Of a stretch of DNA of 64,000 nt, positions 1,326 to 14,815 are shown piece after piece. The DNA lies in the NCBI GenBank assembly GCA_028748975.1, contig JAQTPI010000003.1, positions 33,064 through 97,063 of the forward strand. The letters run 5' to 3'. Positions within the stretch are counted from its first letter, which is position 1, and each line of letters begins with the position of its first letter. This stretch comes from Patescibacteria group bacterium. Its GTDB lineage: Bacteria > Patescibacteriota > Patescibacteriia > UBA2196. A program made the position numbers and the translations under genes. The notes beneath the pieces are model-generated. The model saw nothing but the letters and a program-made list of their open reading frames with translations, was not told where the DNA came from and did not search any database.

Positions 1326-1435
1326 ATGGTTTGTTTAACACGCGAATATATATGCGAATATTTGCGAATGTGTTTGCGAATATTCGCAAAGTTATTCGCA
1401 TCAATTCGCACCGCTATTCGTATGCGCCCCCGTCC

Positions 1436-1464
1436 TTGACAGAATTTTTTGGAGGTGATAGAAT
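1436..1464 (+). promoter_or_regulatory. Near-consensus sigma70 promoter (TTGACA-17-TAGAAT) for the small ORF at 1516
   Basis: TTGACA at 1436-1441, a 17-bp spacer, TAGAAT at 1459-1464. A GAGGAGG Shine-Dalgarno lies 8 nt before the ATG. Confidence 0.6.
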
Positions 1465-1515
1465 GGAGATGGTAGTAAATCACTCACAATACAACCGATA
1501 AACGAGGAGGTAAAA

Positions 1516-1725
1516 ATGTTTCTTCAACTCATTCTCCCTGGTGGTAATGGAAATGAAAAATTGAAAGTGTTAAATGACTTCGAAAAATATAAAAAAATAC
1601 AGGTGATATTTGCGCGTGACGCTTTTAGCAACCGCATACCTGACATTATTGTTGATTCGGAGAAAATTGAAAGATTTCCGGGTGATAAAAATTTTTTCTA
1701 CATTCAAAAGAAAGAACGGGGTTAG
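1516..1725 (+). CDS. Hypothetical 69-aa protein (antisense cassette 1)
   Basis: ORF with a strong SD (acgaGGAGGtaaaaATG), its own promoter and a downstream hairpin plus T-run. No recognisable family. Confidence 0.45.
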   Translation: MFLQLILPGGNGNEKLKVLNDFEKYKKIQVIFARDAFSNRIPDIIVDSEKIERFPGDKNFFYIQKKERG

Positions 1726-1746
1726 ACATCTAAAGAAAATTATCAT

Positions 1747-1776
1747 GGCAGGCCCGCTGGTCTGCCTTTTTTCTTT
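1747..1776 (+). terminator. Rho-independent terminator (ggcag…ctgcc + T-run) followed by the TTTGTCAAAAAA motif
   Basis: Stem GGCAG / CTGCC followed by TTTTTTCTTTGTCAAAAAA. Confidence 0.5.
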
Positions 1777-1956
1777 GTCAAAAAACTGGAACGCGACTAC
1801 CACAACCACCCCGGTCCGACGTGATGTCGGACCACCCCTCCTTCGAAAGGAGGGGATAACGACGCTATCCTCCCCTTTCGAAGGGGAGGTGCCCCGACAG
1901 CAGTCGAGGGCGGAGGGGTTGTAATAAATTTATTAGATTATTAAATTATCAGATTA

Positions 1957-2391
1957 TTATTTTATCGTCCCGCCGGCTTTCTCAATCGCCTCTTTAGCGG
2001 AAGCTGATACCGCACAATTAGTAAGATTTAATTTTATTTTAATTTCACCTTTGCCTAAAATCTTCACGCTAAATCTGCTGGTGGCGACCATTCTTTTCTT
2101 TAATAAAATTTCCGGAGTCACCACCTCGCCATCTTTAAAATGATGGGTGAGGTCGCGCAAATTCACAATCGCCGGTTTTTTGTACATGGATTTAAAACCG
2201 CGCAACTTGGGAGTCTGCTCCATTAACTGGCGCATACCCAGGCGCTTCAAATTATGGCGGCCGCCGGATCTGGCGCGCTGCCCTTTTTGGCCCTTGCCCG
2301 AATAGTTGCCGCGTTTGCCGCCACGGCCAATGCGGACTTTTTTAGTCCGTGAACCGCGAGCGGATTTAATTGTGTGAAGAGAGAGGGTCAT
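1957..2391 (-). CDS. rplO: Ribosomal protein L15
   Basis: …RIGRGGKRGNYSGKGQKGQRARSGG… is the characteristic L15 motif. Its position follows S5, so L30 is absent. Confidence 0.9.
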   Translation of the reverse strand: MTLSLHTIKSARGSRTKKVRIGRGGKRGNYSGKGQKGQRARSGGRHNLKRLGMRQLMEQTPKLRGFKSMYKKPAIVNLRDLTHHFKDGEVVTPEILLKKRMVATSRFSVKILGKGEIKIKLNLTNCAVSASAKEAIEKAGGTIK

Positions 2392-2493
2392 AAATGATCT
2401 ACAAATTTACGAATCCTACGAATATACGAATAGTTACATAATTTTTGCGCTTCATTCGTACATTCGTTTTATTCGTACATTCGTAGCTATAAT

Positions 2494-2985
2494 TTATTTA
2501 TTTTTACGTTCATTAGACTTATTCAATATCTTCAGCGCCTCGTAGGTGCAGGTGGTATAATTGATTTTATTTTTACTGGTGCTGACCATTTTGCCAACCA
2601 CGTCTTGCAGGCCCGACATGTCCAACATGATGCGCACGGGACCGCCGGCTTTGATGCCGGTGCCGGACGGAGCCGGTTTCAAAAGAATTTTGGCAGCGCC
2701 GAATTTATGCAAAATCGGATGCGGCACAGTGCGTTTAAAATTCAAAGTAATTAAGCTTTTTTTGGCCTGGTCCATGGCTTTGGACATGGCGAGCGCCACG
2801 TCTTTGCCTTTGGCCACGCCAAAACCAACCCGGCCTTTTTTATCGCCAATGACAATTAAGGCGCGAAAACTCATTCTTTTGCCGCCGCCGGTGACACGCG
2901 TCACGCGCGCCAAATCCACCGTCTTTTGGTCAAATTCCGGTTTCTCGCGTTCTGGTCTGTGTTTAAAATCTCTTTTTGGTTTCAT
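2494..2985 (-). CDS. rpsE: Ribosomal protein S5
   Basis: …VTRVTGGGKRMSFRALIVIGDKKGRVGFGVAKGKDV… matches the S5 dsRBD and C-terminal domain. Confidence 0.9.
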   Translation of the reverse strand: MKPKRDFKHRPEREKPEFDQKTVDLARVTRVTGGGKRMSFRALIVIGDKKGRVGFGVAKGKDVALAMSKAMDQAKKSLITLNFKRTVPHPILHKFGAAKILLKPAPSGTGIKAGGPVRIMLDMSGLQDVVGKMVSTSKNKINYTTCTYEALKILNKSNERKNK

Positions 2986-3148
2986 AATATAGCGTTTCCC
3001 CGCCTTCGTTCTCTTGAGTCCTTTAGCACTCCGGCGGGTAAACTCTTGTTATTTTTACTATCTTTCTTTATAAATTACTTATTCCTAAATCAGGAGCCTG
3101 TCCGCCGGAGCGATAATGGGACGCTTAGGAGCGCAGGCGGACAAAAGA
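2986..3148. repeat. 160-bp structured repeat, copy 1 (second copy at 58034-58190)
   Basis: gtttccccgccttcgttctct…cggcgggtaaac…tccgccggagcg…tgggacgcttaggagcgcaggcgga is shared almost verbatim with 58034-58190. Confidence 0.7.
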
Positions 3149-3502
3149 TTAAAACTTAAGTCCCCCTTCTCTCGCCCCTTCGGCCAGTGCTTTAATTATA
3201 CCATGATATTTAAAACGGCCGCGATCAAAGACACATTCTTTAATTTTCTTTTCCAAAGCCAGTTTGGCAATTTGACCGCCAACTTCTTTGGCATTCTCAA
3301 TTTTTTTACCTTTTAATTTGGCATCATTGGCGCTCGCTATGGTGATTTGCTTTTCATCATTAATTAATTGGGCGCTGACATGCTTCAAGCTTTTGAAAAC
3401 AGACAATCGGGGTTTTTTGGCGGTGCCCAAAAACTTGGCGCGCACCCGGGCCGCCCGTCTCATTATTTTTATTTGTTTGGCTTTTTGTATGTTTGTCTTC
3501 AT
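3149..3502 (-). CDS. rplR: Ribosomal protein L18
   Basis: MKTNIQKAKQ…ARVRAKF…PRLSVFKSLKHVSAQLINDEK…. The start is trimmed to the internal ATG at 3500-3502, because the longer ORF runs into the repeat element. Confidence 0.85.
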   Translation of the reverse strand: MKTNIQKAKQIKIMRRAARVRAKFLGTAKKPRLSVFKSLKHVSAQLINDEKQITIASANDAKLKGKKIENAKEVGGQIAKLALEKKIKECVFDRGRFKYHGIIKALAEGAREGGLKF

Positions 3503-3646
3503 ATAGGTAAACAGATTTTCACAGATAGAGCACGGATTTTCACAGATGCACAGATTAGCTCGCCTCAATTCTCTTGATTAAAGGGATAAATAAATCTGTG
3601 TATTTGTGTTAATCTGTCTAATATCTGTGTCTATTTGTTTTGGTTA
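3503..3646. repeat. Intergenic word-palindrome, CACAGAT/ATCTGTG family
   Basis: ttttcacagatagagcacggattttcacagatgcacagat…atctgtgtatttgtgttaatctgtctaatatctgtgtc. Left and right arms are reverse complements built from the word cacagat. Confidence 0.8.
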
Positions 3647-4192
3647 TTACGCCGCGGCTGTTTTCGCTTTCTTGCCGGCTTTAATCTTAATTATTTCACC
3701 CAAATATCTGATGCCTTTGCCTTTGTAAGGTTCTGGTTTTTTAACGCGCTTAATTTGCGCGGCTGTTTCACCGACTAAAAATTTATCATTACCTTCAATA
3801 GTGATGACATTTTTATCAACGGAAATTTTGATGCCGTCGGGAATAGGAAATTTGACTTCATGAGAATAACCCACCGCCAGCATTAAATTTTTACCGGAGA
3901 CGGAGGCGCGATAACCGACGCCGTTGATTTCCAGCTCTTTTTTAAAACCAACAGTCACGCCCAAAATCATGTTGTTCACCAGCTGGCGCATGGTGCCCCA
4001 AAGCGCACTCACGTATTTTTCTTCTTGAAGAACCACCATATTTATTTCTTTGTCCTTGAGTTCCAAACCGATGGCGGGATGAAGTTTCAGAGTCAATTCG
4101 CCTTTGGGTCCTTTGACCATAACCAAACCAGCCTCGACTTTCACTTCGACTTTGTCCGGAATTTGAATTATTTTTTTACCTACTCTGCTCAT
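3647..4192 (-). CDS. rplF: Ribosomal protein L6
   Basis: MSRVGKKIIQIPDKVEVKV…GPKGEL… is the typical L6 two-domain sequence. Confidence 0.9.
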   Translation of the reverse strand: MSRVGKKIIQIPDKVEVKVEAGLVMVKGPKGELTLKLHPAIGLELKDKEINMVVLQEEKYVSALWGTMRQLVNNMILGVTVGFKKELEINGVGYRASVSGKNLMLAVGYSHEVKFPIPDGIKISVDKNVITIEGNDKFLVGETAAQIKRVKKPEPYKGKGIRYLGEIIKIKAGKKAKTAAA

Positions 4193-4342
4193 AAATATTA
4201 TTTAAGCTCCAAGCTCCAAATTCCAAGCTCCAAATAAATCTCAAATTCCAATAATCAAAATTCAAAATTACGACGGTTTGGAATTTGAAATTTGTTATTT
4301 GGAACTTATTTGGAAATTGGGAATTGGTTATTGGAAATTTTT
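4193..4342. repeat. Intergenic word-palindrome, CCAAG/TTGG family
   Basis: caaattccaagctccaaataaatctcaaattccaataat…atttggaacttatttggaaattgggaattggttattggaaatt. Confidence 0.8.
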
Positions 4343-4771
4343 CTAATATATCTCACAAACCACTTCCCCGCCCAAACCTTTTTTGCGAGCCTCATTATCA
4401 GTCATTAAACCTTGGGAGGTGGAAATGATGGCCATGCCCCAACCATTCAAAACTTTAGGCAGTTTATCTTTAGCGGCATAAACGCGCTTGCCGGGCTTAC
4501 TGACTCTTTGAATGCTCTTAATTTTACCTTCACCATCAGCATCATAAATTAGCCCCAATTTAAGCTGTTCAAATTTAATTCCACTTTCTTTGCTTTTTTT
4601 AATCTTAAGATCTGGTTTGATGATGGACACTTCTTTCACCCAGTTTTCGCGCTCCAAAACCTTTAAGACAGCCAATTTTAATTTTGAATACGGCAAAACC
4701 ACTTCAGCTTTTTTGACCAGCTGGGCGTTTCTGATTCTTGTTAACATGTCGGAAATTGGATCAGTATGCAT
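4343..4771 (-). CDS. rpsH: Ribosomal protein S8
   Basis: MHTDPISDMLTRIRNAQLVKK… is the canonical S8 N-terminus. The start is placed at the internal Met, since 9 upstream codons lie in repeat DNA. Confidence 0.85.
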   Translation of the reverse strand: MHTDPISDMLTRIRNAQLVKKAEVVLPYSKLKLAVLKVLERENWVKEVSIIKPDLKIKKSKESGIKFEQLKLGLIYDADGEGKIKSIQRVSKPGKRVYAAKDKLPKVLNGWGMAIISTSQGLMTDNEARKKGLGGEVVCEIY

Positions 4772-4910
4772 AATATTCTTTAAAGCACCAAATTTCAAAT
4801 TCCAAATAACAAACGGTTGGCGCGGAGCGCCAATTGTTTAGAATTTAGAATTTGGTGCTTGGAATTTGTTTGTATTTTGTAATTTGTTATTTGTAATTTA
4901 CTATTTTAGT

Positions 4911-5096
4911 TTACCAACTTGATTTGGTTACTCCCGGCAACTCATTGCGATTAGCTAACTCACGAAAACAGATGCGGCACATATTGAAATCGCGCATGTA
5001 GCCGCGATTGCGGCCGCAACGCCAACAGCGCCTCACTTTGCGAGTGCTGAATTTTGGTTTTCTTTTAGATTTAGCAATTTGAGCTTGAGTGGCCAT
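4911..5096 (-). CDS. rpsN: Ribosomal protein S14, type Z (zinc-binding)
   Basis: [48 protein letters not shown]: 61 aa with a CxxC…CxxC pattern. The longer ORF N-terminus lies in a GC-hairpin element. Confidence 0.9.
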
Positions 5097-5254
5097 AGAT
5101 TTATTTTTATATGTAACCTGCCCTGAGGAGCGGGAGCGACGAAGGGCCCCCTGCGAACCTGGGTAAGTTATATTTTGCAAGTTTTACCCGCTTGCTACGG
5201 GGTCCTTCGTCCTCCTTACCCGCTGGCAAGTCGTCCTCAGGACAGGCTAATAAT
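5097..5254. repeat. GC-rich palindromic element (cctgaggag…cgacgaagg / ccttcgtc…cctcagg)
   Basis: A long inverted repeat, ccctgaggagcgggagcgacgaagggcc…ggtccttcgtcctccttacccgctggcaagtcgtcctcaggacagg. Related copies are at 20310-20345 and 25000-25050. Confidence 0.75.
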
Positions 5255-5794
5255 TTACTTCTGAAACGGAAACCCTAATAATTTAAATAATTCTAATCCT
5301 TCTTCTTTATTTTTAGCATTGGTTGTCAAGACAACTTCCAGGCCATGAATACTTTCCACTTCATCCGGATTAATTTCGCCAAAAACCAAATGTTCTTTAA
5401 AACCAATGGTTAAATTACCGGTCTTATCAATGGATTTGGGAGAAAGTCCGCGAAAATCGCGCACGCGCGGCAAGGCCACGCCAATCAATTTATCAACAAA
5501 ATCAAACATGCGGCCGCGGCGCAAAGTGACCTTGGCGCCGACCACTTGATTTTCTCTGATCTTAAAAGCGGAAATGGCCTTTTTGGCTTTGGTCAAAATT
5601 GGCCTCTGGCCAGAAATTCTAACCAGGGTGCGCTCAATTAAAGCTTGAAACTTATCATCACGCTTGGCAGCGGAAATTCCCACATTCAAAGTCACCTTCA
5701 AAAGTTTCGGCACCGCCAAATCATTGGTGTAGCCGAACTTTTCCTTCAAGGCCGGGATTATTTCTTTAAGATATTTTTGCTTGAGTCTGTTCAT
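5255..5794 (-). CDS. rplE: Ribosomal protein L5
   Basis: MNRLKQKYLKEIIPAL…PKLLKVTLNVG…RGLSPKSID… is typical L5. Confidence 0.9.
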   Translation of the reverse strand: MNRLKQKYLKEIIPALKEKFGYTNDLAVPKLLKVTLNVGISAAKRDDKFQALIERTLVRISGQRPILTKAKKAISAFKIRENQVVGAKVTLRRGRMFDFVDKLIGVALPRVRDFRGLSPKSIDKTGNLTIGFKEHLVFGEINPDEVESIHGLEVVLTTNAKNKEEGLELFKLLGFPFQK

Positions 5795-5930
5795 AAATTG
5801 AGATCTACGAATTTACGAATCCCGAGTACTCGGGACGAATATACAAATAGTCACATAATTTTTGCGCTTCATTCGTACATTCGTTTTATTCGTAAATTTG
5901 TAGTTCTACTTTTATTTACTTAGCTTATTA
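5795..5930. repeat. Intergenic word-palindrome, CGAAT/ATTCG family
   Basis: ctacgaatttacgaatcccgagtactcgggacgaatatac…cattcgtacattcgttttattcgtaaatttgtag. A near-identical copy is at 2397-2490. Confidence 0.8.
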
Positions 5931-6266
5931 TTATATTACAGCACTACATTTTTTACATATGCGCTGTTTTTTCTCACGAGTCAGTTCAGATTTTTCGGCA
6001 TTAATTTGAAAACCAATTCTGGTTGCTTTGCCACATTTGGGGCAAACCAGCATGACATTTGTGGCGTCCATCAGAGCCGGAAACATGATGCGCTGGCCTT
6101 TTTCGCGGTCGCGGCGCGGGCGCAGATGCTTATAGCGCAGATTCAAACCTTCCACCGTCACCATCAAGCGATCCTCATCTTTTTTAACCACCTGCAAAAC
6201 CCGGCCGCTTTTGCCGCGGTCTTTGCCTTTGATTATTTTGACGGTGTCATTCTTTCTAATATTCAT
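5931..6266 (-). CDS. rplX: Ribosomal protein L24 with a Cys4 zinc-ribbon in the C-terminal half
   Basis: N-terminal KOW motif (KNDTVKIIKGKDRGKSGRVL). The C-terminal part carries CPKCGK…CKKC at positions that are usually D/T in L24. Confidence 0.8.
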   Translation of the reverse strand: MNIRKNDTVKIIKGKDRGKSGRVLQVVKKDEDRLMVTVEGLNLRYKHLRPRRDREKGQRIMFPALMDATNVMLVCPKCGKATRIGFQINAEKSELTREKKQRICKKCSAVI

Positions 6267-6381
6267 AATTTTATAATAATGTTTTCATCTGCGAATTTTT
6301 ACGAATTTTGTGCGAATTTTGCGAACAGATCGTTCTGTGCCTATTCGCATAATTCGCAGGTAATTCGCTACTAATTCGCAT

Positions 6382-6753
6382 TTACAAAACTTCTGGTGCG
6401 AGTGAAATTATTTTATTAAACCCGGCGGCGCGCAGTTCTCTGGCTACTGGGCCAAAGATACGTGTGGCTTTCGGTTCTTTGGTTTTTGGGTCAATAATAA
6501 CGCCGGCGTTGTCATCAAAACGAATATAGATGCCGTTTTTACGGCGGATTTCTTTTCTGGTACGGACAATTACCACTTTAACCAAATCGCCTTTTTTGAC
6601 CGCGGTGTGCGGCTGGGCATCTTTGATGGTGCAGTAAACAATGTCACCAATGCTGGCAAAACGCCGACGATAGCCCGCGCCAACCTTAATTACCTGAAGC
6701 CGTTTGGCTCCGGAATTATCAGCAACATTGATTTGAGAGGCAAGTTGAATCAT
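6382..6753 (-). CDS. rplN: Ribosomal protein L14
   Basis: [24 protein letters not shown]… is the canonical L14 start. The 17 upstream codons of the ORF are translated repeat DNA. Confidence 0.9.
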
Positions 6754-6899
6754 AAATAATTTAAAGCACCAAGCTCCAAGCACCAATTTCCAAACAAATT
6801 TCAAATTTCAATAATTAAAATTTCAAACACGACGGTTTAGGATTTGGAATTTGATATTTTGAATTTGTTTGTTATTTGATGCTTGTTATTTGGAATTTA

Positions 6900-7148
6900 T
6901 TATTGCACCGTCTTCCATCTCTTATCTTTTGATAGCGGCCGGCATTCTATGAAAGTTACTTTATCGCCGACTTTGTGTTCGTTCTTTTCATCATGAACTT
7001 TATATTTTTTGCTGACGGTGTAGCGTTTGAGGTAGCGCGGATGGATTTTAGTATTTTCAACCTTAACCACGATGGTTTTGTCCATCTTATCAGAAACTAC
7101 CGTGCCGGTAAAGGTTCTTTTGATTTTATTATTATTTTCTTTTTCCAT
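6900..7148 (-). CDS. rpsQ: Ribosomal protein S17
   Basis: …RTFTGTVVSDKMDKTIVVKVE…HPRYLKRY…KYKVHDEKNE. Confidence 0.9.
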   Translation of the reverse strand: MEKENNNKIKRTFTGTVVSDKMDKTIVVKVENTKIHPRYLKRYTVSKKYKVHDEKNEHKVGDKVTFIECRPLSKDKRWKTVQ

Positions 7149-7155
7149 ATTATTA

Positions 7156-7341
7156 TTATTTTATGGTTTTAAGTAAAGTAGAAATTTGCGCAATATTTTT
7201 CTTGGCAAAACGAAGTTCACGGATATTTTTAAGTTGGCGCTGAGCCACCTTAAAATTAAGCTCGCGTAATTTCTCCTGCTCGTTTTTTAACAGGGTTTTT
7301 AATTCGTTTTCAGATTTTATTTTTAATTCTTTAATTTTCAT
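7156..7341 (-). CDS. rpmC: Ribosomal protein L29
   Basis: 61-aa helical protein, MKIKELKIKSENELKTLLKNEQEKL…, located between L16 and S17. Confidence 0.85.
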   Translation of the reverse strand: MKIKELKIKSENELKTLLKNEQEKLRELNFKVAQRQLKNIRELRFAKKNIAQISTLLKTIK

Positions 7342-7431
7342 ATAATACGCTAATTAATTTGCGAATTTTTGCGAATGTGTTTGCGAATATTCGCATAGTT
7401 ATTCGCAAACATTCGCATATTTATTCGGGTG

Positions 7432-7845: not shown

Positions 7846-7989
7846 ACAAATAAACAAATTTTCACAGATAGAGCGCGGATTCTCACAGATACACAGATTG
7901 TCTCACCCCACTTCTCTTAATTAGGGGGATGAATAAATCTGTGTATCTGTGTTGATCTGTCTGGTATCTGTGTCTATTTGTTTTGTTTT

Positions 7990-8661
7990 TTATTTTTTCT
8001 TCTCCTCTACTTTGCCAAAATATTCGCCTTTATAAATCCAGACTTTGATGCCGATGATGCCATAGGAAGTTTCGGCGGTGGTGCGGGAATAATCAATATC
8101 GGAGCGCAAGGTGTGCAAAGGCATCTTGCCTTGCGACAACATCTCCCGCCGCGCGATTTCCGCGCCATCCAAGCGGCCGCTAATTGTCACCTTCACGCCC
8201 TGGGCCCCCGCTTTCATCATCGCTTCAATATTTCTTTTCATGGCGCGCCGAAATGGAATTCTTTTTTCCAATTCATTGGCAATGTTTTTAGCGACAATCA
8301 TGGCAGAAAGCTGCGGCTGGGTTACTTCTTTAATGCCGATATTAATGTTTATTCCTTTGGCTACTTTGCCTTTTAAAATATTTTTAACAATATGATTTTT
8401 GACATCTTCCACGCCCGCGCCGCCCTTGCCAATGATGACACCGGGACGAGAAGAAAAAATAGTGATTTTCATGTTATCGCGCGCGCGTTCAATTTCCACG
8501 TGGTCCAAACCGGCTTCATGAAGTTTTTTCATGATATAGCGGCGGATTTTGACATCCTGCTCGGCTTTGGCGGCGTATTCGCGACCCGAAGCAAACCACT
8601 TGGAATTCCAAGAAGTTGACTGTCCGATGCGAAATATTTTTGGATTAACTTTGTGACCCAT
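7990..8661 (-). CDS. rpsC: Ribosomal protein S3
   Basis: MGHKVNPKIFRIG…SKWFA… contains the KH domain. The start is trimmed to the canonical MGHK. Confidence 0.9.
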   Translation of the reverse strand: MGHKVNPKIFRIGQSTSWNSKWFASGREYAAKAEQDVKIRRYIMKKLHEAGLDHVEIERARDNMKITIFSSRPGVIIGKGGAGVEDVKNHIVKNILKGKVAKGININIGIKEVTQPQLSAMIVAKNIANELEKRIPFRRAMKRNIEAMMKAGAQGVKVTISGRLDGAEIARREMLSQGKMPLHTLRSDIDYSRTTAETSYGIIGIKVWIYKGEYFGKVEEKKK

Positions 8662-8803
8662 AATAATATAAAACAAATTTTCACAGATAGAGCGCGGATT
8701 TTCACAGATACACAGATTGTTTCACCTTTATACTTCTCTATTAGAGATAAATAAATCTGTGTATCTGTGTTGATCTGTCTGGTATCTGTGTCTATTTGTT
8801 TGG

Positions 8804-9415
8804 TTAAACAGATTTCCGTCTAAATACCCTTTTTAATATTCCACCCTTGCTTTTTTTTCTGATCTTATCAAGGTGTTGTTTTTCGCGGTGCTTGCCTTCC
8901 ATGCGGATGTCTTCAATGTCTGGCTTATGTTCTTCCCCGGTAGTTGCTTCTTTCCCTTCCGAGTGAACGTTTTCTTCCACTTCTTCTTTGACCAATTTTT
9001 TAGCTTCATCCCAATCTTTAACTACTACTACGTCGTCCCCTTTTTCTTGTTTTTCCTTTTTTTCTTTTTTAACTTCTGTCACGGTTTTATCTTCCAAAAT
9101 TAAAGTGACATGAGTGGTAAATTTATGGATGGGGGTGGCGCGGCCCTGGGCGCGCGGCATCCAGCGTTTTAAAACAGAGCCCTTGTCAGCGCGAAATTCG
9201 GAAATTTCCAGATTTTCTTTTTTCAATTTAAAGTTGTTTTCCGCGTTGGCCACGGCGCTTTTTAATAATTTCAAAAGAGGCAAAGCTGATTTTTTCGGCA
9301 TAAACTGCAATTGTTCCATGGCTTTACTAACTGGCATTTTTTTAACAGCTTCAAGCACGACCCGGACTTTGCGGGGAGAGATGCGGAGATAATTAATTTT
9401 GGCTTGAATCTTCAT
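8804..9415 (-). CDS. rplV: Ribosomal protein L22 with a ~90-aa K/E-rich C-terminal extension
   Basis: MKIQAKINYLRISPRKVRVV…TTHVTLIL is the L22 core. It is followed by EDKTVTEVKKEKKEKQEKGDD… as a charged tail. Confidence 0.85.
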   Translation of the reverse strand: MKIQAKINYLRISPRKVRVVLEAVKKMPVSKAMEQLQFMPKKSALPLLKLLKSAVANAENNFKLKKENLEISEFRADKGSVLKRWMPRAQGRATPIHKFTTHVTLILEDKTVTEVKKEKKEKQEKGDDVVVVKDWDEAKKLVKEEVEENVHSEGKEATTGEEHKPDIEDIRMEGKHREKQHLDKIRKKSKGGILKRVFRRKSV

Positions 9416-9558
9416 AGAGATAAACAAATTTTCACAGATAGAGCGCGGATTTTCACAGATACACAGATTGTTTCACCTTTATACTTCTCTATTAGAGATA
9501 AATAAATCTGTGTATCTGTGTTGATCTGTCTGGTATCTGTGTCTATCTGTTTTGATTA

Positions 9559-9897
9559 TTATTTTTTCGCTGCTGGAGCAACCGGTGCTGCAGGTGTAGT
9601 AGCGGCCGAAGCAACAGCGCCTTGTTCAATTTCTTTCTGCATCTTGCCACCATGACGCACGAATTTTCTGGTCGGCGCGAATTCGCCAAGCTTATGGCCC
9701 ACCATATTTTCTACTACCGAGACGGTTAAGTGTGTCTTGCCATTATGCACGCCGAAAACAAAACCTACCATAGCCGGCGTAATGGTGCAAGCGCGCGACC
9801 AGGTCTTGATGACGGTTTTGTCGCCAATTCTAAGCTTGCCGACTTTTTTCAGTAAGCGTTCATCAACATATGGGCCTTTTTTAAGTGATCTACTCAT
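9559..9897 (-). CDS. rpsS: Ribosomal protein S19 with an Ala/Pro-rich tail
   Basis: [19 protein letters not shown]…[13 protein letters not shown]…, then …[15 protein letters not shown]. Confidence 0.9.
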
Positions 9898-9995
9898 AAT
9901 TTTATGCGAATTCTTGCGAATTTTGTGCGAATTTTGCGAACAGATAGTTTGGAGCTATTCGCATAATTCGCAGATAATTCGCTAATAATTCGTAT

Positions 9996-10826
9996 TTATT
10001 TCTTCCTTCTCTGCAAAATTAATTTATCCGTCCATTTCTTTTTTCTGGTCTGCACGCCCATGGCGTGTTTGCCCCAAAGGGTTTTGGCGTAAGGCATGCC
10101 GATCGGGTGTTTGCCTTCACCGCCGCCGTGTGGATGGTCCACCGGGTTCATGGCTTTACCGCGAACTGTCGGCTTGATGCCCATGTGGCGCTTGCGGCCG
10201 GCTTTACCCACGCGCACCAGCTTCGCTTCCAGATTGGAAACCTGGCCGATGCTCGCGAGACACTCTTTTCTGACTAAACGAATTTCACTGGAAGGCATTT
10301 TCAATTGCGCGTAATCACCTTCCATATTTTGTAAAATTAATCCGGTGCCGGCGCTGCGCGCGACTTTGCCGCCGCGAAGCGGTTCTAGTTCTATATTATA
10401 CACCATTTCACCTTGCATGACATATTGGAGCGGCAGGCGATTGCCTTTCTTCATATCAATTTTATTTTGGGAAGAAACAATTTTATCGCCGATTTTGGCG
10501 CCGTCCCAAGCCAAGATATAACTTTTCTCGCCGTCTTCATATTTAACGAGGGCGATTCTGGCATTTCGATTGGGATCATATTCAATAGCGATGACTTCAG
10601 CTGGAATATCAAATCTGGTTTGTTTGAAATCAACAAGACGATACATTTTTCTGGTACCGCCGCCGCGATGGCGCACGGTAATTTGCCCGGTGTTGTTGCG
10701 GCCAGAATGTTTCTTGGAAACCACGATTAAATTCTTCTCGGCCTTCTTTTTGGTCAAATCCAAAGAAGAGACCACGGTGGTGTGGCGTCGTCCGGAAGTT
10801 GTTGGTTTGTAGTATTTTATAGCCAT
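9996..10826 (-). CDS. rplB: Ribosomal protein L2
   Basis: MAIKYYKPTTSGRRHTTVV… and …HPHGGGEGK… are typical of L2. Confidence 0.9.
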   Translation of the reverse strand: MAIKYYKPTTSGRRHTTVVSSLDLTKKKAEKNLIVVSKKHSGRNNTGQITVRHRGGGTRKMYRLVDFKQTRFDIPAEVIAIEYDPNRNARIALVKYEDGEKSYILAWDGAKIGDKIVSSQNKIDMKKGNRLPLQYVMQGEMVYNIELEPLRGGKVARSAGTGLILQNMEGDYAQLKMPSSEIRLVRKECLASIGQVSNLEAKLVRVGKAGRKRHMGIKPTVRGKAMNPVDHPHGGGEGKHPIGMPYAKTLWGKHAMGVQTRKKKWTDKLILQRRKK

Positions 10827-10970
10827 AGAAAATAAACAAATTTTCACAGATAGAGCACGGATTTTCACAGATACACAGATCGGCTCACCATGATTTTCTC
10901 ACTACCAGAGAGATGAGCAAATCTGTGCATCTGTGTTAATCTGTTTTACATCTGTGTAAATCTGTCTTGC

Positions 10971-11402
10971 TTACACTCCCTCATAGATCGATATTTTATC
11001 ACCCATTTTTAATGTCACCACTGCTTTCTTCCAATTTTTCAGGTGTCCCACGGAACGGCCGGAACGGCTGGTTTTGCCTTTGACATTAACTATATTAATT
11101 TTAAGCGGTTTGACATTATAAGCGTGTTCAATGGCTTTTCTGACTTCGGATTTATTGGTGCGCGGCGAGACCTCAAAAAGATATTTGTTTTCCGCGCCGA
11201 TTAGAGCGCCTTTTTCCGTAACGAGCGGACGAATCAAAATTTGGTGCGCCATCAGATGGCCATATTTTTTTTCATGCTTATCTTTTTGTTCGCGATTGGC
11301 AATCACGCCAACTTTTTCTTCCTTTTTTTTATCAACTTCAACCACGCCTGCCGCGGCAGATTGCTTTTCTTCCTTTTTAGGTTTTTTGCTGAAAATGCTC
11401 AT
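10971..11402 (-). CDS. rplW: Ribosomal protein L23 with a K/E-rich N-terminal extension
   Basis: …HQILIRPLVTEKGALIGAENKYLFEVSPRTNKSEVRKAIEHAYNVKPLKINIV…. Confidence 0.85.
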   Translation of the reverse strand: MSIFSKKPKKEEKQSAAAGVVEVDKKKEEKVGVIANREQKDKHEKKYGHLMAHQILIRPLVTEKGALIGAENKYLFEVSPRTNKSEVRKAIEHAYNVKPLKINIVNVKGKTSRSGRSVGHLKNWKKAVVTLKMGDKISIYEGV

Positions 11403-11558
11403 AGAAACAGGTTTTCACAGATTTATTACAGATTTTCACAGATACACAGATAAGGCGATCTCATCCCCCTCTCCTTAATAAGGAGAGGGTTGGGGTGAGG
11501 TCGTAATATCTGTGTTTCTGTGTACTATCTGTCTGGCATCTGTGTCTATTTGTTTATT

Positions 11559-12305
11559 TTAATTTTTTAAATAAGTTTTCTCAATTACCGGCAAAGCTTC
11601 TTCGGAAATAATAATATTTTTATATTTAAGCAAATCCACCACATTCAAACTGTCAGCGGTAGTTATTTTCACGCCCGCCAGATTGCGGCCGGCGCGGAAA
11701 GTGTTTTTGTCCGATTTCGGAAGCACTACAAGTATAGATAATTTATATCTCTTAATATCAAATTTATTTCCAGTTTCCAGTTTCTGATCACTGGTTTCTG
11801 ATTTCTGATTTCCGGTTTCTGTTTTTTTGCTCTTTTTTATTTCTTTTAAAATCAAGATATTTTTGAAATTCTTCACTACCCCAACAAACTCTTTCGTCTT
11901 CCCTTCGGCCAAACTTAATTTATCAACCAAAAACATTAAACCATTATTAACTTTATCCGAAAGGCACATAAAGAGCGCTTTGGTTTTCATTTTCTTATTA
12001 ACTTTTTGGCTGAAATTCCGGTTACTGCGCGGGCCAAAAGTTACGCCGCCGCCTTTCCAAAGCGGAGAGCGGATGGAGCCATGGCGGGCGCGGCCGGTGC
12101 CTTTTTGTTTCCATGGTTTTCTGCCGCCGCCTCTGACTTCGCCTTTGGTTTTGGTGTGAGCAATCGCCACGCGAGCATTTGCCATTTGCGCCACCATCAC
12201 CTGGTGCACCACGCTTTCTTTTACTGCCACGCCAAACATTGCCGGATTCAATTCCGTTTCTTTAACTTTTTCAGCTTGTAAATTATAGACTGGTAACTTT
12301 TCCAT
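11559..12305 (-). CDS. rplD: Ribosomal protein L4 carrying a repeat-encoded insertion
   Basis: …GGGRKPWKQKGTGRARHGSIRSPLWKGGGVTFGP… is the L4 signature. The insert KKSKKTETGNQKSETSDQKLETGN is encoded by a gtttccagtttctgat… word repeat at ~11745-11830. Confidence 0.85.
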   Translation of the reverse strand: MEKLPVYNLQAEKVKETELNPAMFGVAVKESVVHQVMVAQMANARVAIAHTKTKGEVRGGGRKPWKQKGTGRARHGSIRSPLWKGGGVTFGPRSNRNFSQKVNKKMKTKALFMCLSDKVNNGLMFLVDKLSLAEGKTKEFVGVVKNFKNILILKEIKKSKKTETGNQKSETSDQKLETGNKFDIKRYKLSILVVLPKSDKNTFRAGRNLAGVKITTADSLNVVDLLKYKNIIISEEALPVIEKTYLKN

Positions 12306-12382
12306 AGATATTTTAGAAATTTGTTTTTATCGCGAGTTTACGCGACTGACTACGCTACTTTACGCGACACAGAAATTGATGC

Positions 12383-12411
12383 TTGACATAAATATTTTAA
12401 TTTGCTATACT
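12383..12411 (+). promoter_or_regulatory. Consensus sigma70 promoter (TTGACA-17-TATACT) antisense to the S10 operon
   Basis: TTGACA at 12383-12388, a 17-bp spacer, TATACT at 12406-12411. It is followed by AAAAGGAGAAAcc-ATG at 12466. Confidence 0.65.
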
Positions 12412-12465
12412 TGAATTACAAATAGTTTAGTTTAATTTGGGCTAACTCACACAAAAGGAGAAACC

Positions 12466-12693
12466 ATGAAAAAAAAGTATGCGAGGGTGTGTATTGTTTC
12501 TGTCGTACTCCCACTAATTGGTTTTTTGGGATTACTTCTGCTTCCTAAACAATCCACTATCACCACCACACCAAATGTTCTTGCTGCCATCTCTTTAGTT
12601 CTGATTGGACTTGGCGGCGGAATGTTTATTGGCGCTTACACTATGAACCCAATTCGCAGCATAGTCAAATTAATGATGAAGAAAAAAAGTTAA
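12466..12693 (+). CDS. Hypothetical 75-aa two-TM membrane protein (antisense cassette between rplD and rplC)
   Basis: Strong SD and promoter. Two hydrophobic helices (IVSVVLPLIGFLGLLLL and LAAISLVLIGLGGGMFIGAY). The terminator follows. Confidence 0.5.
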   Translation: MKKKYARVCIVSVVLPLIGFLGLLLLPKQSTITTTPNVLAAISLVLIGLGGGMFIGAYTMNPIRSIVKLMMKKKS

Positions 12694-12708
12694 ATGTTTC
12701 TATCTATA

Positions 12709-12734
12709 GGCAGATCACTAATCTGCCTTTTTTA
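12709..12734 (+). terminator. Rho-independent terminator
   Basis: ggcagatcactaatctgcc followed by TTTTTTATTTGCC. Confidence 0.55.
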
Positions 12735-12790
12735 TTTGCCAAATTTTGAAATGAGTTTTATTTTTATTACTCCTATTACTTTTAATACTT

Positions 12791-13588
12791 TTATTCCTGT
12801 TTTGTTTCTACTGGCGCTTCCACTTTTTCTTCCACGATCGGTGTTTCTTTTTTTTCTTCTACAGCCGGCACTGTTTCCTGTTTTCCGCTTTCCGATTTCT
12901 GATTTTCGGCTTCCTTGTCTCTTGTCTCTTGTCTCTTGTCGCTAATTTTCAACTCTCCTTCCCCCACAATTTCCACCAGCCCGCTTCTGGCTCCCGGCAC
13001 CGCGCCTTTGATATAGAGCAAATTATTTTCCAAATCAACTTTGACAATTTCCACATTTTTCACCGAGACCTGCTCATCGCCCATGTGGCCGGCCATTCTG
13101 CGTCCTTTGACCACGTGCTGGACGCCGCCGGCGCCGATGGAACCGGGCATTCTTTCCTGATCTTTATGGCCGTGGCTGGCCGGGTGGCCATGAAAATGAT
13201 GGCGGCGCACCACGCCCTGAAAGCCCTTGCCTTTGGAAGTGCCGGTAACTTTCACTTCATCGCCGACATTAAATGTTTCCGCGGTAATAATATTACCAAC
13301 TTCAATTCCCTGATTTCCGATTTCTGATTTCTGATTACTTTTATTTTTATCCCGAAATTCTCTTGAAAATCTAAAACTACCCAAGCTACCAAAATGTCCC
13401 TTTAATGCTTTAGAATTACTTTTTTTTTCGCCAAAACCAATCTGAACGGATTCATAGCCGTCTTGATCTTTTGACTTGACTTGCGTCACAACGCAGGGGC
13501 CGGCTTTGACAATTGTCGCCGGAACCACATTGCCCGCTTCGTCAAAAAGCTGAGTCATTTCAATTTTCTGGCCGAGGATGTATTTCAT
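12791..13588 (-). CDS. rplC: Ribosomal protein L3 with an internal repeat-encoded insert and an acidic C-terminal tail
   Basis: MKYILGQKIEMTQLFDEAGNVVPATIV… and …GKGFQGVVRRHHFHGHPASHG… are L3 motifs. NQKSEIGNQGIEVG and KRQETRDKEAENQKSESGKQE come from the ttctgatttc word repeat. Confidence 0.85.
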   Translation of the reverse strand: MKYILGQKIEMTQLFDEAGNVVPATIVKAGPCVVTQVKSKDQDGYESVQIGFGEKKSNSKALKGHFGSLGSFRFSREFRDKNKSNQKSEIGNQGIEVGNIITAETFNVGDEVKVTGTSKGKGFQGVVRRHHFHGHPASHGHKDQERMPGSIGAGGVQHVVKGRRMAGHMGDEQVSVKNVEIVKVDLENNLLYIKGAVPGARSGLVEIVGEGELKISDKRQETRDKEAENQKSESGKQETVPAVEEKKETPIVEEKVEAPVETKQE

Positions 13589-13740
13589 AGAGAAAACAGA
13601 TTTTCACAGATAGAGCACAAATTTTCACAGATACACAGATTTATTTTTCTTGTCATCCCCGTGCAAGCGGGGATCTAGAAATCTGTGTTTATTTGTGTAT
13701 CTGTGTGCTATCTGTTTTACATCTGTGGAGATCTGTTTTA
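13589..13740. repeat. Intergenic word-palindrome, CACAGAT family, with a GC hairpin core
   Basis: gattttcacagatagagcacaaattttcacagatacacagat…gtcatccccgtgcaagcggggatctag…atctgtgtgctatctgttttacatctgtggagatctg. Confidence 0.8.
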
Positions 13741-13954
13741 ATAAACAAAAACTGGTTCTTTCGAAACCAGCTCAAAACATTATCCAAACCTGCCAAAATT
13801 ACGACACCTAAATGTCGTGAATCTTACGGTTTAATTTTTAGATAATTTTCTAAACTGGTTTTCTTTGATCGCCAAAATGGTAATTACGAACTGTTCCTGC
13901 CTAATTAGCGGGCATCATTCGCGTTTACTTGGCAATAAGTTATCAAAAATAAAA

Positions 13955-14113: not shown

Positions 14114-14232
14114 AAAATATTTATTTTCTGGATTCCCTTTCTCAAGGGAATGACAGAAATTAAAATTTATTTACTGACGAGATCCCTCGGCTCCTAACTT
14201 CCCTATAAGGCCGCTCGGGATAAACTACCAAA

Positions 14233-14589: not shown

Positions 14590-14599
14590 TTCTCTTTTT

Positions 14600-14760: not shown

Positions 14761-14815
14761 TTTAGACACGCTTCAGTCCCCCGCCAAAGCGAGGAACTGC
14801 TTGTTTGTCTAAAAA

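Follow-up and report, generated by a model that had tools for sequence, protein, structure and literature searches.

What fills the spacers of the S10-spc ribosomal protein cluster in this patescibacterial genome, and how did it get there? The cluster lies on the minus strand (45–16018) of the window, by which we mean the whole 64-kb stretch of DNA that was analysed, and nearly all of its spacers are occupied by hairpin-forming repeats of 90–155 bases. Word-built palindromes stand at 16 junctions and belong to families A (GCGAAT/ACGAAT words), B (CACAGAT) and C (TTCCAAAT/CCAAG). GC-rich hairpins occur at three further junctions, and two have no element: L29→S17 (a gap of 7 nt) and L3→L4, which holds a small antisense gene and no palindrome (z = 0.1). 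An earlier note on this DNA had the coordinates and words of the elements right. Its statement that every gap is filled holds for most S10-spc gaps but not for these two, and its 18 or more consecutive word-built gaps come down to 16, because L29→S17 and L3→L4 are element-free and the hairpins at L18→S5 (2986–3148) and L5→S14 (5097–5254) are GC-rich and not word-built. The elements also inflate open reading frames, as had been suspected: artefactual TTG or GTG starts were confirmed for L18, S8, S14, L14, L16, S3, L22 and L2, and the relatives' homologues of these eight proteins match the ATG-start lengths.

Elements of the S10-spc cluster

The elements are as follows (all minus strand; L numbers followed by three digits denote the related sequences compared below).

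1326–1440, minus: family A1, GCGAAT ×4/ATTCGC ×4, directly 5' of secY; −39.7 kcal/mol; periods 10,12/12,10; 96% to 7360–7407
1800–1930, minus: family D, GC-rich, CCCCTTTCGAAGGGG type, 3' of L15; z = −9.3; copies at 14625–14760, 17049–17175 and 51731–51825, both orientations present
2392–2493, minus: family A2, ACGAAT ×4/ATTCGT ×4, S5→L15; z −5.8 to −7.1; 94% to 5835–5903; 5' arm identical (35/35) to the tuf→S10 element of L149/L152
2986–3148, minus: family E, GC-rich, not word-built, L18→S5; z = −4.5; copy at 58041–58178; 92% match to the L153 element 5' of L2
3503–3646, minus: family B, CACAGAT ×5/ATCTGTG ×5, L6→L18 (by folding and copy comparison)
4193–4342, minus: family C, TTCCAAAT/ATTTGGA and CCAAG/CTTGG, S8→L6; z −6.9 to −7.5; 81% to 6764–6859
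4772–4910, minus: family C with a central GC mini-hairpin, S14→S8; z −6.5 to −7.3; part-match to 31187–31218, inverted
5097–5254, minus: family G, GC-rich, not word-built, L5→S14; −73.6 kcal/mol; z −7 to −8; has both AGCCTGTCCTGAG and a GAAGGACCCC stretch in common with the L153 element 3' of L2 (by eye; no significant BLAST hit)
5795–5930, minus: family A2 with a nested CCCGAGTACTCGGG hairpin, L24→L5; junction 8 nt in L149
6267–6381, minus: family A3, GCGAATT ×4/AATTCGC ×4, L14→L24; the sole element with an L149 orthologue
6754–6899, minus: family C, S17→L14; junction 26 nt in L148
7342–7431, minus: family A1, L16→L29; junction 10 nt in L148, 4 nt in L149
7846–7989, minus: family B, S3→L16; junction 18–22 nt in L148, L151 and L149
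8662–8803, minus: family B, L22→S3; 99.2% to 9422–9552; junction 21 nt in L148 and L151
9416–9558, minus: family B, S19→L22; junction 22, 18, 13 and 8 nt in L148, L151, L154 and L149
9898–9995, minus: family A3, L2→S19; z −9 to −10.5; junction 17–21 nt in L148, L151 and L154, a GC-rich, family G-like element in L153
10827–10970, minus: family B, L23→L2; z −10 to −12; junction 17–27 nt in L148, L151 and L154, a family E element in L153
11403–11558, minus: family B, L4→L23, with a GC hairpin nested in its loop; z = −12; junction 6 nt in L148, 3 nt in L151, a TACGGAT/ATCCGTA word palindrome in L149
13589–13740, minus: family B, inserted behind the conserved rplC leader's terminator and ahead of the L3 start codon
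14620–14765, minus: family D, GC-rich, behind a conserved tuf-downstream hairpin; 97% to 1866–1929, inverted; not in L148

Each gap listed in the earlier note folds in RNAfold into one long imperfect hairpin spanning 84–151 nt with 30–53 pairs (−27 to −67 kcal/mol; z against shuffles −4.2 to −12.7). Word spacing is mirrored between the arms (A1 10,12/12,10; A2 8,9,8/8,9; B 10,11,10,8/8,21,10), with periods of 7 to 12 nt across the elements. The words are invariant, whereas the intervening spacers vary and for the most part are not complementary. Word number varies, and some variants run through a whole element (GCGAAT, ACGAAT or GCGAATT; CGGAT versus CAGAT). The L4 protein carries a 19-aa in-frame insertion of word repeats. 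Three near-identical pairs claimed previously were confirmed at 90–96% (2418–2486 with 5835–5903, 94%, 69 nt; 6290–6378 with 9905–9992, 90%, 89 nt; 1353–1400 with 7360–7407, 96%, 48 nt); the best-matching pair, 8671–8801 with 9422–9552 (99.2% over 131 nt), had not been noticed. In family B the arm on the start-codon side is 93–98% conserved and the opposite arm less so, an inequality that simple neutral transposon decay does not predict and that runs against the origin favoured below.

The suggestion that many elements supply the only Shine–Dalgarno-like GGAG of the downstream gene did not hold. GGAG is confined to family C, where it stands 15–25 nt ahead of the ATG. Among the 34 genes checked, no SD-like tetramer lies less than 15 nt from a start codon, and the relatives' empty spacers have none either.

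Elements elsewhere in the window

The hairpins are not peculiar to the conserved operon, as the earlier wording could imply; the whole 64-kb window is colonised. Among the gaps tested in the window, 39 of 49 fold far better than shuffles (z < −3), versus 4 of 25 coding controls (Fisher p = 2e-7; coding mean z −1.3). Elements outside the cluster include the following.

21169–21212, minus: half A1, four GCGAAT words, 3' arm missing, adjoining the rpsG end
31161–31317, minus: family C, 5' of comEC
31738–31837, minus: family B, loop-less, between an hpf-like gene and a ferredoxin gene; orientation relative to the genes as in the other seven B copies
59321–59440, minus: family I, AAAATCAAAA/TTTTACATTTT words; sister copies 61331–61449 and 62750–62885
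62128–62311, minus: family H, ATTGGAA/TTCCAAT words; GTTTATCCCGAG terminus, as in the GTAG-tagged family of L149/L152

The three copies of family I occupy successive junctions of a single operon, and the family matches L058, from a distant CPR lineage, at 86–91%. A GTAG...CTAC-tagged REP-type family is present in L149/L152 and has left remnants in the window. Families A, B and C are locally clustered (16 of about 21 cluster gaps versus 3 of about 37 elsewhere, p = 2e-7). All eight copies of family B point the same way, and by our own tally 16 of 18 additional copies of the asymmetric families are co-oriented (binomial p = 7e-4). Hairpins are depleted at promoters: 2 of the 6 divergent gaps hold one, as against 33 of the 38 co-directional ones (p = 0.011).

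Comparison with relatives

The relatives span a range of L2 protein identity to the window (L153 93%, L148 91%, L154 89%, L151 83%, L149/L152 80%). L148, L154 and L151 share the gene order but have empty junctions of 3–27 nt where the window has 90–156 nt. The closest, L153, carries other families at its L2 junctions (E upstream, GC-rich and G-like downstream) in place of the window's B and A3. L149 and L152 possess A2, B and F elements at junctions other than those of the window. Four-fold sites are only 47% identical between the window and L149/L152, that is, saturated; the A2 arm is nevertheless identical at 35 of 35 positions. At L14→L24 the A3 element matches L149 9617–9728, at the same junction, with 86% identity over 113 nt and a conserved 3' flank. 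The loop has fully diverged, and every change in the 3' arm is C↔T and G·U-compatible in the sense RNA. Such conservation despite saturated synonymous sites likewise runs against the favoured origin.

L149 (ENA) and L152 (JGI), two independent metagenome assemblies, are 99.87% identical. Intergenic SNP density between them is about four times that of coding DNA, and none of their approximately 17 elements has been gained or lost, from which we infer that element movement is infrequent at present, a further point against the favoured origin. The filled-gap state recurs in at least five other CPR clades, scattered over the radiation, and every one of them has compact sisters (82–91% S3 identity). 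The density is therefore not the novelty it was taken for, the more so since cross-phylum heptamer repeats in ribosomal protein operons have been described (PMC4679880).

CACAGAT arrays in other phyla

The DNA of phages, proteobacteria and cyanobacteria likewise contains CACAGAT arrays with a 10-nt period. Arrays of three CACAGAT-NNN units were found in 46 viral contigs; in 33 of these the spacers are unequal, and at 13 loci both strands carry arrays within about 200 nt of each other. With two shuffled words as controls, 3 and 4 contigs were obtained, one of them with unequal spacers. No shared protein gene lies beside the arrays in the viral contigs. Metagenome contigs of proteobacteria and a Thiodictyon plasmid have such arrays too, and plasmids of cyanobacteria and Methylocystis show matches that are one-armed or partial. 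Many of the cross-phylum arrays are one-armed and lie 20–35 nt ahead of start codons. Together with the conservation of words across non-complementary spacers, these sometimes one-armed arrays suggest that the sequence itself is recognised and that structure is not all that counts, which also tells against the favoured origin.

Resemblance to known repeats

Drosophila FB elements and plant foldback MITEs have long inverted arms made of short tandem subrepeats, variable in number, with little or no loop; to our knowledge, eukaryotic foldback transposons are the sole described architecture that matches a word-built palindrome. They are, however, far larger, eukaryotic and flanked by target duplications, and we imply no evolutionary link. 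Integron attC sites (e.g. Vibrio VCRs) are imperfect palindromes of 57–141 nt that follow each ORF in uniform orientation and are recognised as folded single strands, their structure being conserved above their sequence. The present elements lack RYYYAAC/GTTRRRY core sites, an integrase and attI, and the intervening genes are universally ordered ribosomal protein genes, not cassettes. In compact genomes, the palindromic repeat blooms of organelles and the Mimivirus 'hairpin rule' place hairpins in nearly every intergenic region, those of Mimivirus being 3'-end formation signals conserved across genes; both involve other lineages and other sequence families.

REPINs and REP-BIME elements, mobilised by RAYT transposases (Bertels & Rainey, 2011; PMC3116915), are likewise extragenic, about 100 nt long and symmetric hairpins in ssDNA or mRNA, with conserved arms, a variable spacer, several families per genome, locations between co-transcribed genes, no internal autonomous transposase and singlet remnants, here the half A1 at 21169. 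The arms described here are tandem arrays of 6–8-nt words instead of a single REP of 20–40 nt. A 5' GTAG/CGTC tag is missing from families A, B and C (A2 is reversed, CTAC...GTAG), the 64-kb window has no RAYT, and the density approaches one element at each gene junction; a REP-like appearance is limited to the separate GTAGTTTATCYCGAGCG family of L149/L152. Bacterial MITEs (Correia/NEMIS, ERIC, BOX, RUP, RPE; reviewed in PMC10969869) are similarly cotranscribed, fold in mRNA, measure 100–150 bp, have terminal inverted repeats, show insertion polymorphism among relatives and nested insertions, and occupy intra-operon sites. They differ in that no TA or other target duplication is detectable here and that the arms, themselves repetitive, account for almost all of the present elements. 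Neither the window nor plasmids or phages yielded a parent IS whose ends match. Intergenic direct repeats of the heptamer TAACTGA in Beggiatoaceae, cyanobacteria and Bacteroidetes (MacGregor, 2015; PMC4679880) also place a short repeated word just 5' of SD-less start codons and within ribosomal protein operons (fusA, L3, S4, S1); they too are patchy across phyla, without a known vector, and occasionally in-frame in ORFs. Those repeats are contiguous, with 169 direct sets versus one inverted, and form no hairpins, whereas the arrays here are spaced by 1–5 nt and paired with an inverted array.

Origin of the elements

The gap-fillers are probably several families of non-autonomous, hairpin-forming mobile repeats of the foldback type, nearest to bacterial MITEs and REPINs. 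Their distribution is best explained by insertion into short AT-rich spacers of co-transcribed genes after the split from the nearest sampled relatives. Elements are present or absent at given junctions, families turn over, copies are near-identical and locally clustered, asymmetric families keep a constant orientation, and target duplications are not recognisable. Absence of the hairpin repeats from the closest relatives points to recent selfish insertions and not to conserved regulatory leaders. The MITE/REP-like radiation with recent copying proposed in the earlier note thus gains partial support, from copies up to 99% identical, empty orthologous junctions and family turnover.

It is rather unlikely that the hairpins are instead RNA devices selected by the host and spread because useful, protecting the upstream cistron from 3'-exonucleases, serving RNase III-type cleavage or bridging termination and initiation. 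Their position implies cotranscription, the hairpin base lying a median of 6 nt past the stop codon and 7 nt ahead of the next ATG; co-directional junctions are enriched and divergent ones depleted, families A, B and C are found mainly in translation operons, the orthologous A3 is conserved above neutral expectation with wobble-compatible changes, and of the two arms of B the one near the start codon is conserved more strongly. Close relatives, however, run the same operon with empty 3–27-nt spacers, and families are interchangeable at a given junction. Nor is the sense strand the more stable (19 of 42 gaps; 151 G·U pairs sense versus 174 antisense), family B even folding better as antisense; no covariation was detected in the elements, and the raised intergenic SNP density between L149 and L152 also speaks against such devices. 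Ordinary ribosomal protein leaders, attenuators or intrinsic terminators would occupy similar positions, and one genuine leader with a terminator does exist 5' of rplC (13741–13954), with compensatory changes at 12 of 54 pairs. The elements show no such covariation, and with neither a U-tract nor a GC-rich stem base they do not fit the pattern of a terminator. No Rfam family reached gathering score, and sub-threshold hits were generic microRNA precursor hairpin models on both strands. Empty orthologous junctions in close relatives refute this reading, to which we give very little credence; with complementary arms, no Rfam family and elements missing from close relatives, the observation of the earlier note stands.

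The words could also be protein-binding sites in DNA or RNA, as 6–7-bp arrays at roughly helical spacing inverted between the arms (operator, nucleoid, partition-like or multi-site transposon ends), which we regard as improbable. Invariant words between variable, mostly non-complementary spacers speak for it, as do CACAGAT arrays far above shuffled-word controls in viral contigs, their occurrence in proteobacterial contigs and plasmids, and the many one-armed arrays 5' of start codons. Against it, one small genome holds at least ten different words, the 7–12-nt periods keep no single helical phase, whole-element word variants imply concerted evolution and not a fixed recognition site, the viral contigs encode no shared protein beside the arrays, and array-less relatives express the same operons. 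The regularity that had hinted at a designed spacer system makes an assembly artefact or synthetic construct conceivable, but hardly credible: the same families occur with natural divergence in independent ENA, JGI and Logan assemblies (L149, L152, L150, L153), which refutes it, and they turn over between relatives.

Copies of mobile foldback repeats would be made either in trans, through an enzyme whose gene lies elsewhere in the genome, or through local template switching. The 64-kb window encodes neither a transposase nor a RAYT, and neither a target-site duplication nor a sharp insertion footprint could be defined; both points tell against this origin. For such a putative enzyme the most plausible mode would be recognition of single-stranded hairpins in the manner of IS200/IS605 and RAYT, which would fit both the absent target duplication and the strand bias. 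Word-built arms may have arisen by slippage or duplication of 8–12-nt units within each arm plus homogenisation between arms, as suggested by arms that differ in their number of words, by the mirrored spacing, by word variants that run through whole elements and by the in-frame L4 expansion.

The S10-spc operon may tolerate the elements because they would be transcribed as self-contained imperfect hairpins without a terminator U-tract whose base brings the stop and start codons to within about 6–7 nt of each other. A terminating ribosome would then melt the very helix that masks the next start and, as stop and start stay adjacent, we propose that translational coupling survives in this SD-less organism. 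Judged from sequence comparison, the conservation of the orthologous A3 hairpin looks like purifying selection; some copies may have been co-opted, A3 at L14→L24 being the best candidate.

Word-built hairpins in the S10-spc spacers

The S10-spc cluster, which is among the most constrained gene organizations in bacteria, runs on the minus strand from secY to tuf (45 to 16018) in the universal order. Gene identities were assigned by synteny and by 79-89% amino acid identity to Pfam-annotated relatives. The window comes from a Patescibacteria (CPR) genome; the species representatives that match it best are UBA2196 and AMR_MDS_2570 (S3 protein 66-67% identical), followed by Kuenenbacteria and Komeilibacteria. 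An earlier note had described every gap of the cluster, at least 18 in succession, as filled by a palindrome assembled from a short word and its reverse complement. We find such word-built elements at 16 junctions:

1326 and 7342: family A1 (word GCGAAT)
2392 and 5795: family A2 (ACGAAT)
6267 and 9898: family A3 (GCGAATT)
3503, 7846, 8662, 9416, 10827, 11403 and 13589: family B (CACAGAT)
4193, 4772 and 6754: family C (CCAAG)
L18 to S5 and L5 to S14 junctions: GC-rich hairpins of other families, not word-built
1800 and 14620: family D (GC-rich hairpin, outside these 16)

The series is broken elsewhere: the L29 to S17 junction measures 7 nt, and that between L3 and L4 has no palindrome and holds instead a small antisense gene that has a promoter and a terminator of its own.

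On the sense strand each listed spacer consists of 3-5 copies of a 6-8-nt word, a short variable centre and an equal number of reverse-complement words with mirrored spacing. In RNAfold each forms one long imperfect hairpin (84-151 nt span, 30-53 pairs, -27 to -67 kcal/mol) with z-scores of -4 to -13 against shuffled sequences. The arms are 70-86% complementary and the elements, 90-156 nt long, hold no ORF, which corresponds to MITEs in size, terminal inverted repeats and lack of coding sequence. The base of the hairpin lies at a median of 6 nt past the stop codon and 7 nt ahead of the next ATG, and small GC hairpins are nested in loops and arms. Reading into the 3' arm mechanically produces the inflated TTG/GTG N-termini pointed out in the earlier note; homologues have the lengths expected from ATG starts. 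Near-identical copies are also present as described, and 8671-8801 and 9422-9552 form a better pair still (99.2% identical).

The number of words differs among copies (3 versus 4 in A1, 5 versus 6 in B). Spacers between words have mirrored lengths in the two arms, are mostly non-complementary and are A-rich on the sense strand. Word variants extend through whole elements (GCGAAT, ACGAAT, GCGAATT), and CGGAT and CAGAT are connected by half-converted intermediates. Repeats of the type GAAAYCAG have expanded in frame in L4 (11765-11825), giving a 19-residue insertion, KKTETGNQKSETSDQKLETGN, that is absent from the relatives L148 and L151; they are also seen in L3 on reading the sequence (13300-13335, 12880-12960), and a palindrome of similar words lies upstream of tuf (16180-16249). 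Because word number varies, spacing is mirrored, words change across whole elements and repeats occur in frame in L4, we suggest that arms may grow by slippage or duplication, with homogenization between the arms.

Hairpins are not confined to this operon and occur genome-wide. On our own gene map intergenic sequence makes up about 23% of the window, and 39 of the 49 gaps tested across it have z < -3, compared with 4 of 25 coding controls (p = 2e-7). The families themselves are concentrated: A, B and C occupy 16 of ~21 cluster gaps versus 3 of ~37 elsewhere (p = 2e-7), the three outside copies lying after rpsG, after an hpf-like gene and before comEC. Other word families are found at other positions, and family I, at 59-63 kb, fills three consecutive junctions of another operon:

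26764: TTAGC
28206: TAGAGA
59329, 61340 and 62748: AAAATCA
62161: ATTGGAA

The same junctions are compact in close relatives

Closer relatives were collected through homologues of the L2 protein. Three loci, L148, L154 and L151 (L2 91, 89 and 83% identical), have the gene order of the window, but junctions of 90-156 nt in the window measure only 3-27 nt there, and are AT-rich and without a Shine-Dalgarno (SD) sequence. Together with the lack of any Rfam family, this speaks against ordinary conserved leader regions, a possibility raised earlier. As with MITEs, orthologous sites are filled in one genome and empty in others (L148, L154, L151), or carry other families, as in the closest relative, L153 (93%). 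L153 has GC-rich elements on both sides of L2. The upstream one matches family E of the window's L18 to S5 junction (92% over 51 nt); the downstream one gave no significant BLAST match and resembles family G of L5 to S14 on reading the sequences.

The loci L149 and L152 (80%) carry a different mix, in which three window families recur at other junctions: A2 lies between tuf and S10 (one arm 35/35 identical to the window), family B lies after rpsG, and a GAGTTTTG family has a 26-mer in common by eye, with BLAST matches of 33/35 and 25/25. Only the A3 copy between L14 and L24 is orthologous (86% over 113 nt, flank conserved). Four-fold degenerate sites of the window and L149 are 47% identical, i.e. 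saturated, while the families are still recognizable, which suggests that their sequences are maintained independently of the host background. L149 and L152 differ from each other by 22 SNPs and no indel, so movement is not frequent at present. Ten of these SNPs are in the 18% that is intergenic, 6 of them within 52 nt, as would fit a conversion tract.

In a set of 80 species representatives the cluster is mostly compact (median gap <30 nt). Six others are filled (L058, L036, L030, L011, L067 and L052; median gaps 67-97 nt), their hairpins using words of their own (ACGAAT, TTTTCAAT, ATAAAGTT, AAAATG), and every filled lineage has compact sisters at 82-91% S3 identity. The filled state is labile and arises repeatedly. 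Family I has matches of 86-91% in L058, despite an S3 identity of just 51% between L058 and the window. The comparisons show the elements to be repeated insertions, predicted to form hairpins, that intercistronic junctions gain and exchange over the time-scale of a genus-level clade. The gain and replacement of repeats among relatives make the earlier view of a MITE/REP-like radiation essentially correct; the elements are not a designed spacer system, which had been its alternative.

Do the elements act in the transcript?

Covariance models of Rfam 15 find only four tRNAs in the window at the gathering score and no leader or cis-regulatory RNA, which excludes described leaders; at E <= 1 only sub-threshold models of microRNA precursor hairpins appear, on both strands. 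Intrinsic terminators are likewise excluded, since the element base is AU-rich and has no GC-rich stem followed by a U-tract; a terminator scan picks up only antisense parts of A1 and, in one C element, the hairpin of the inner loop. Nor is there a bias towards stable sense RNA: the sense strand is the more stable in 19 of 42 gaps, and G.U pairs number 151 in sense and 174 in antisense. In family B the antisense strand is consistently more stable, and sense-strand A.C mismatches of the L152 copy would be G.U pairs in antisense. RNAalifold reports no covariation among the eight B copies (covariation term +1.8), which are too recent to be informative. A role in supplying SD sequences, as had been proposed, fails: none of 34 genes checked has an SD-like tetramer <15 nt from its start, and the GGAG of family C lies 15-25 nt upstream.

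Three observations favour a function. In the orthologous A3 pair the loop has fully diverged, the 5' arm is almost intact and all changes in the 3' arm are C<->T. In family B the start-proximal arm is 93-98% conserved and the other arm less so. Hairpins are depleted at promoters, being present in 2 of 6 divergent gaps compared with 33 of 38 co-directional ones (p = 0.011), which we count in favour of function.

The ~200-nt rplC leader (13741-13954, minus strand) stands in contrast to the elements. It is structured, is kept by all four relatives and can form alternative antiterminator/terminator helices; 12 of its 54 pairs show compensatory changes, and it matches no Rfam family. It serves here as the example of a vertically conserved regulatory RNA, and probably represents a so far undescribed attenuator of r-protein genes in this clade. 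The B element at 13589 is positioned between this leader and the L3 start.

Mobility and known repeat systems

The eight B copies are uniformly oriented with respect to their genes, and of 18 further copies across asymmetric families 16 are co-oriented (our own tally; binomial p = 7e-4). No direct repeats are visible at the ends of the eight B copies or in comparisons of filled and empty sites, where the flanks are AT-rich and diverged. The 64-kb window contains no transposase and no Y1-transposase-like ORF; Pfam searches with ten unknown window proteins gave only a PD-(D/E)XK nuclease and a DUF2284 protein. BLAST against plasmids and phages found no meaningful match to B, A1 or A2 and no parent IS with matching ends; exact-pattern scans of viral contigs also found no such parent, nor exact B and A2 motifs. 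Full-text searches of the literature gave no description of such elements for CPR genomes, which are regarded as streamlined.

A REPIN consists of two inverted REPs and a spacer that form a hairpin; the elements share the symmetric hairpin and variable centre, but each arm is an array of words and not a single REP. In REP/REPIN systems a GTAG or CGTC tetranucleotide is conserved at the 5' end of each REP, and the RAYT gene is single-copy and flanked by the same REPs (PMC3116915). Families A1, A3, B and C have no 5' GTAG/CGTC, and A2 reads 5'-CTAC...GTAG-3', which is the opposite polarity. Only one family, GTAGTTTATCYCGAGCG of L149/L152, carries the tag. In the way they work the elements resemble REPINs and cotranscribed MITEs, but no RAYT is found in the 64-kb window and no parent IS was found. 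Their architecture is, we presume, matched only by eukaryotic foldback transposons. Among published bacterial phenomena, word repeats inside r-protein operons come closest in the TAACTGA system, where sets of the heptamer are contiguous direct repeats near start codons without hairpins (PMC4679880); the words in the window, unlike these, have 1-5 nt between them, and each array has an inverted partner.

Several other systems do not fit. Integron attC sites would have RYYYAAC ... GTTRRRY cores; the elements end in AAACARAT...ATYTGTTT or word arrays, and the window has no integrase. TIGR arrays are tandem, have dual spacers and box C/D motifs and lie beside a Tas gene with a Nop domain (PMC12045711), whereas the elements are dispersed one per junction, their loops lack box C/D on reading, and the window ORF translations (the ten unknown ORFs by Pfam) include no candidate Tas. 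Outer word and flank often give TTAGCCACA or TTAACCACA, reminiscent of a DnaA-box cluster, but T never occurs at position 4 and the inner words are poor matches. LexA, PhoB, CIRCE and parS sites do not match on inspection, and there are too many different words for DNA uptake sequences.

The GTAG-tagged family, GTAGTTTATCYCGAGCG ... CGCTCGGGATAAACTAC, is itself REP-like (GTAG...CTAC). It fills many junctions in L149/L152, often enclosing one-armed CGTTAA word arrays, and is represented in the window by half copies only:

L149, 3155-3166, 5373-5505, 6359-6499 and 13084-13095: GTAG-tagged family
Window, 14214-14225 and 62141-62152: GTAG-tagged family

On balance we think it rather probable that the elements are mobile; our confidence in any particular enzyme class for their mobilization is low. 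We propose that they may be non-autonomous foldback elements copied in trans or via local template switching, probably through a single-strand hairpin intermediate, which would fit the absent target duplication and the orientation bias. They would target AT-rich spacers, or survive only in them, and may be tolerated because, once transcribed, they fold aside. The 5' outer words, unwound by the terminating ribosome, could pair with sequence masking the next start; since the ribosome would thereby unwind the partner of the masking sequence, translational coupling could be kept in an operon without SD sequences.

The elements are real and striking, and are a variant of already known kinds of repeat. 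Short hairpin repeats can saturate the S10-spc junctions within one genus-level clade whose sister genomes are compact. This is a natural experiment on how much intercistronic structure a coupled, SD-less operon absorbs, on the bloom and collapse of small mobile DNA in reduced genomes, and on the annotation bias that blooms cause through inflated N-termini and spurious ORFs across elements. Comparing which genes are present or absent in filled and empty sisters would lead directly to the mobilizing gene.

CACAGAT arrays in other organisms

The pattern CACAGAT-NNN repeated three times occurs in 46 viral contigs, of which 33 have spacers of unequal length; at 13 loci both strands carry arrays within ~200 nt. 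Two shuffled-word controls gave 3 and 4 contigs, only one with unequal spacers. The heptamers recur with a period of exactly 10 nt, frequently as triplets inverted about a 20-100-nt loop, in contigs of 30-68% GC. When metagenomes were scanned with a 17-mer of family B, 67 single matches came up, with no B copy from a CPR genome among them; six are CACAGAT palindromes in GC-rich contigs.

Viral contigs, L155-L200: CACAGAT arrays
Metagenome contigs, L082, L083, L094, L118, L120 and L124: CACAGAT arrays
L448, 2500-2640: palindrome on Thiodictyon plasmid pTs485, between fmdB and fmdA of the fmd operon
L449, 2501-2530: one-armed array on an Anabaena cylindrica plasmid

Further palindromes lie between hisS and the gene that follows it on a GC-rich metagenome contig, which looks proteobacterial in its gene order, and in intercistronic positions upstream of tape-measure genes in the tail operons of two phage groups. 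Aulosira, Scytonema and Methylocystis plasmids have short partial matches. One-armed arrays thus occur in other organisms, whereas in the window arrays are always paired with an inverted array. Clustering of ORFs at the 46 viral loci found no common neighbouring protein, and a literature search for the word itself returned only primer noise. A scan for GCGAAT arrays with variable spacers was uninformative, being inseparable from its shuffled-word control among the matches listed.

Mainly these cross-phylum arrays keep a sequence-recognition model alive. The period-10 arrays, and by extension the other words, would then be recognition lattices for a widespread nucleic-acid-binding or mobilizing activity of phages, Proteobacteria, cyanobacteria and CPR; the CPR elements would be paired lattices copied into intercistronic spacers, and also stop-to-start bridges that keep coupling in SD-less operons. 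We consider this unlikely. If true, it would make the elements a novel class of mobile element or cis-element in prokaryotes, one that extends across phyla. The arrays provide a concrete motif for a binding-protein search.

Other loci in the window

Two antisense small genes, each with its own near-consensus promoter and intrinsic terminator, lie within the cluster:

1516-1725, plus strand: between L15 and secY (promoter 1436-1464, terminator 1747-1766)
12466-12693, plus strand: between L3 and L4 (promoter 12383-12411, terminator 12708-12728)

The second is absent from the L3 to L4 junction of L148, L151 and L149. Between S10 and the rplC leader is a 52-residue Lys/Glu-rich ORF (13955-14113, minus strand) for which L148 and L151 have no counterpart; in L149 another small ORF follows tuf. 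Directly 3' of tuf a hairpin with an inner GC stem (14760-14815, minus strand; TTTTAGACA...GTGTCTAAAA) is kept in L148 and L149. Reading of the sequences points to compensatory changes in the inner stem, and the hairpin probably serves tuf as its genuine terminator or for processing.

Small GC hairpins resembling GTCATTCCCGCGCAGGCGGGAATCC (21120-21165, 14130-14165) are the source of spurious 'SFPRRRESR...RGNDK' ORFs, which we believe recur in many environmental genomes; one such hairpin took the place of the 3' arm of the A1 element after rpsG. At 27490-28195 (minus strand) a perfect TTGACA-17-TATAAT promoter precedes ~650 nt of GC-rich sequence (~55%) without a credible ORF, ending in an intrinsic terminator, GGCGCC...GGCGCCTTTTT (RNAfold z = -7.9). 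This region has no Rfam match even at E < 0.1 and is a candidate large structured non-coding RNA.
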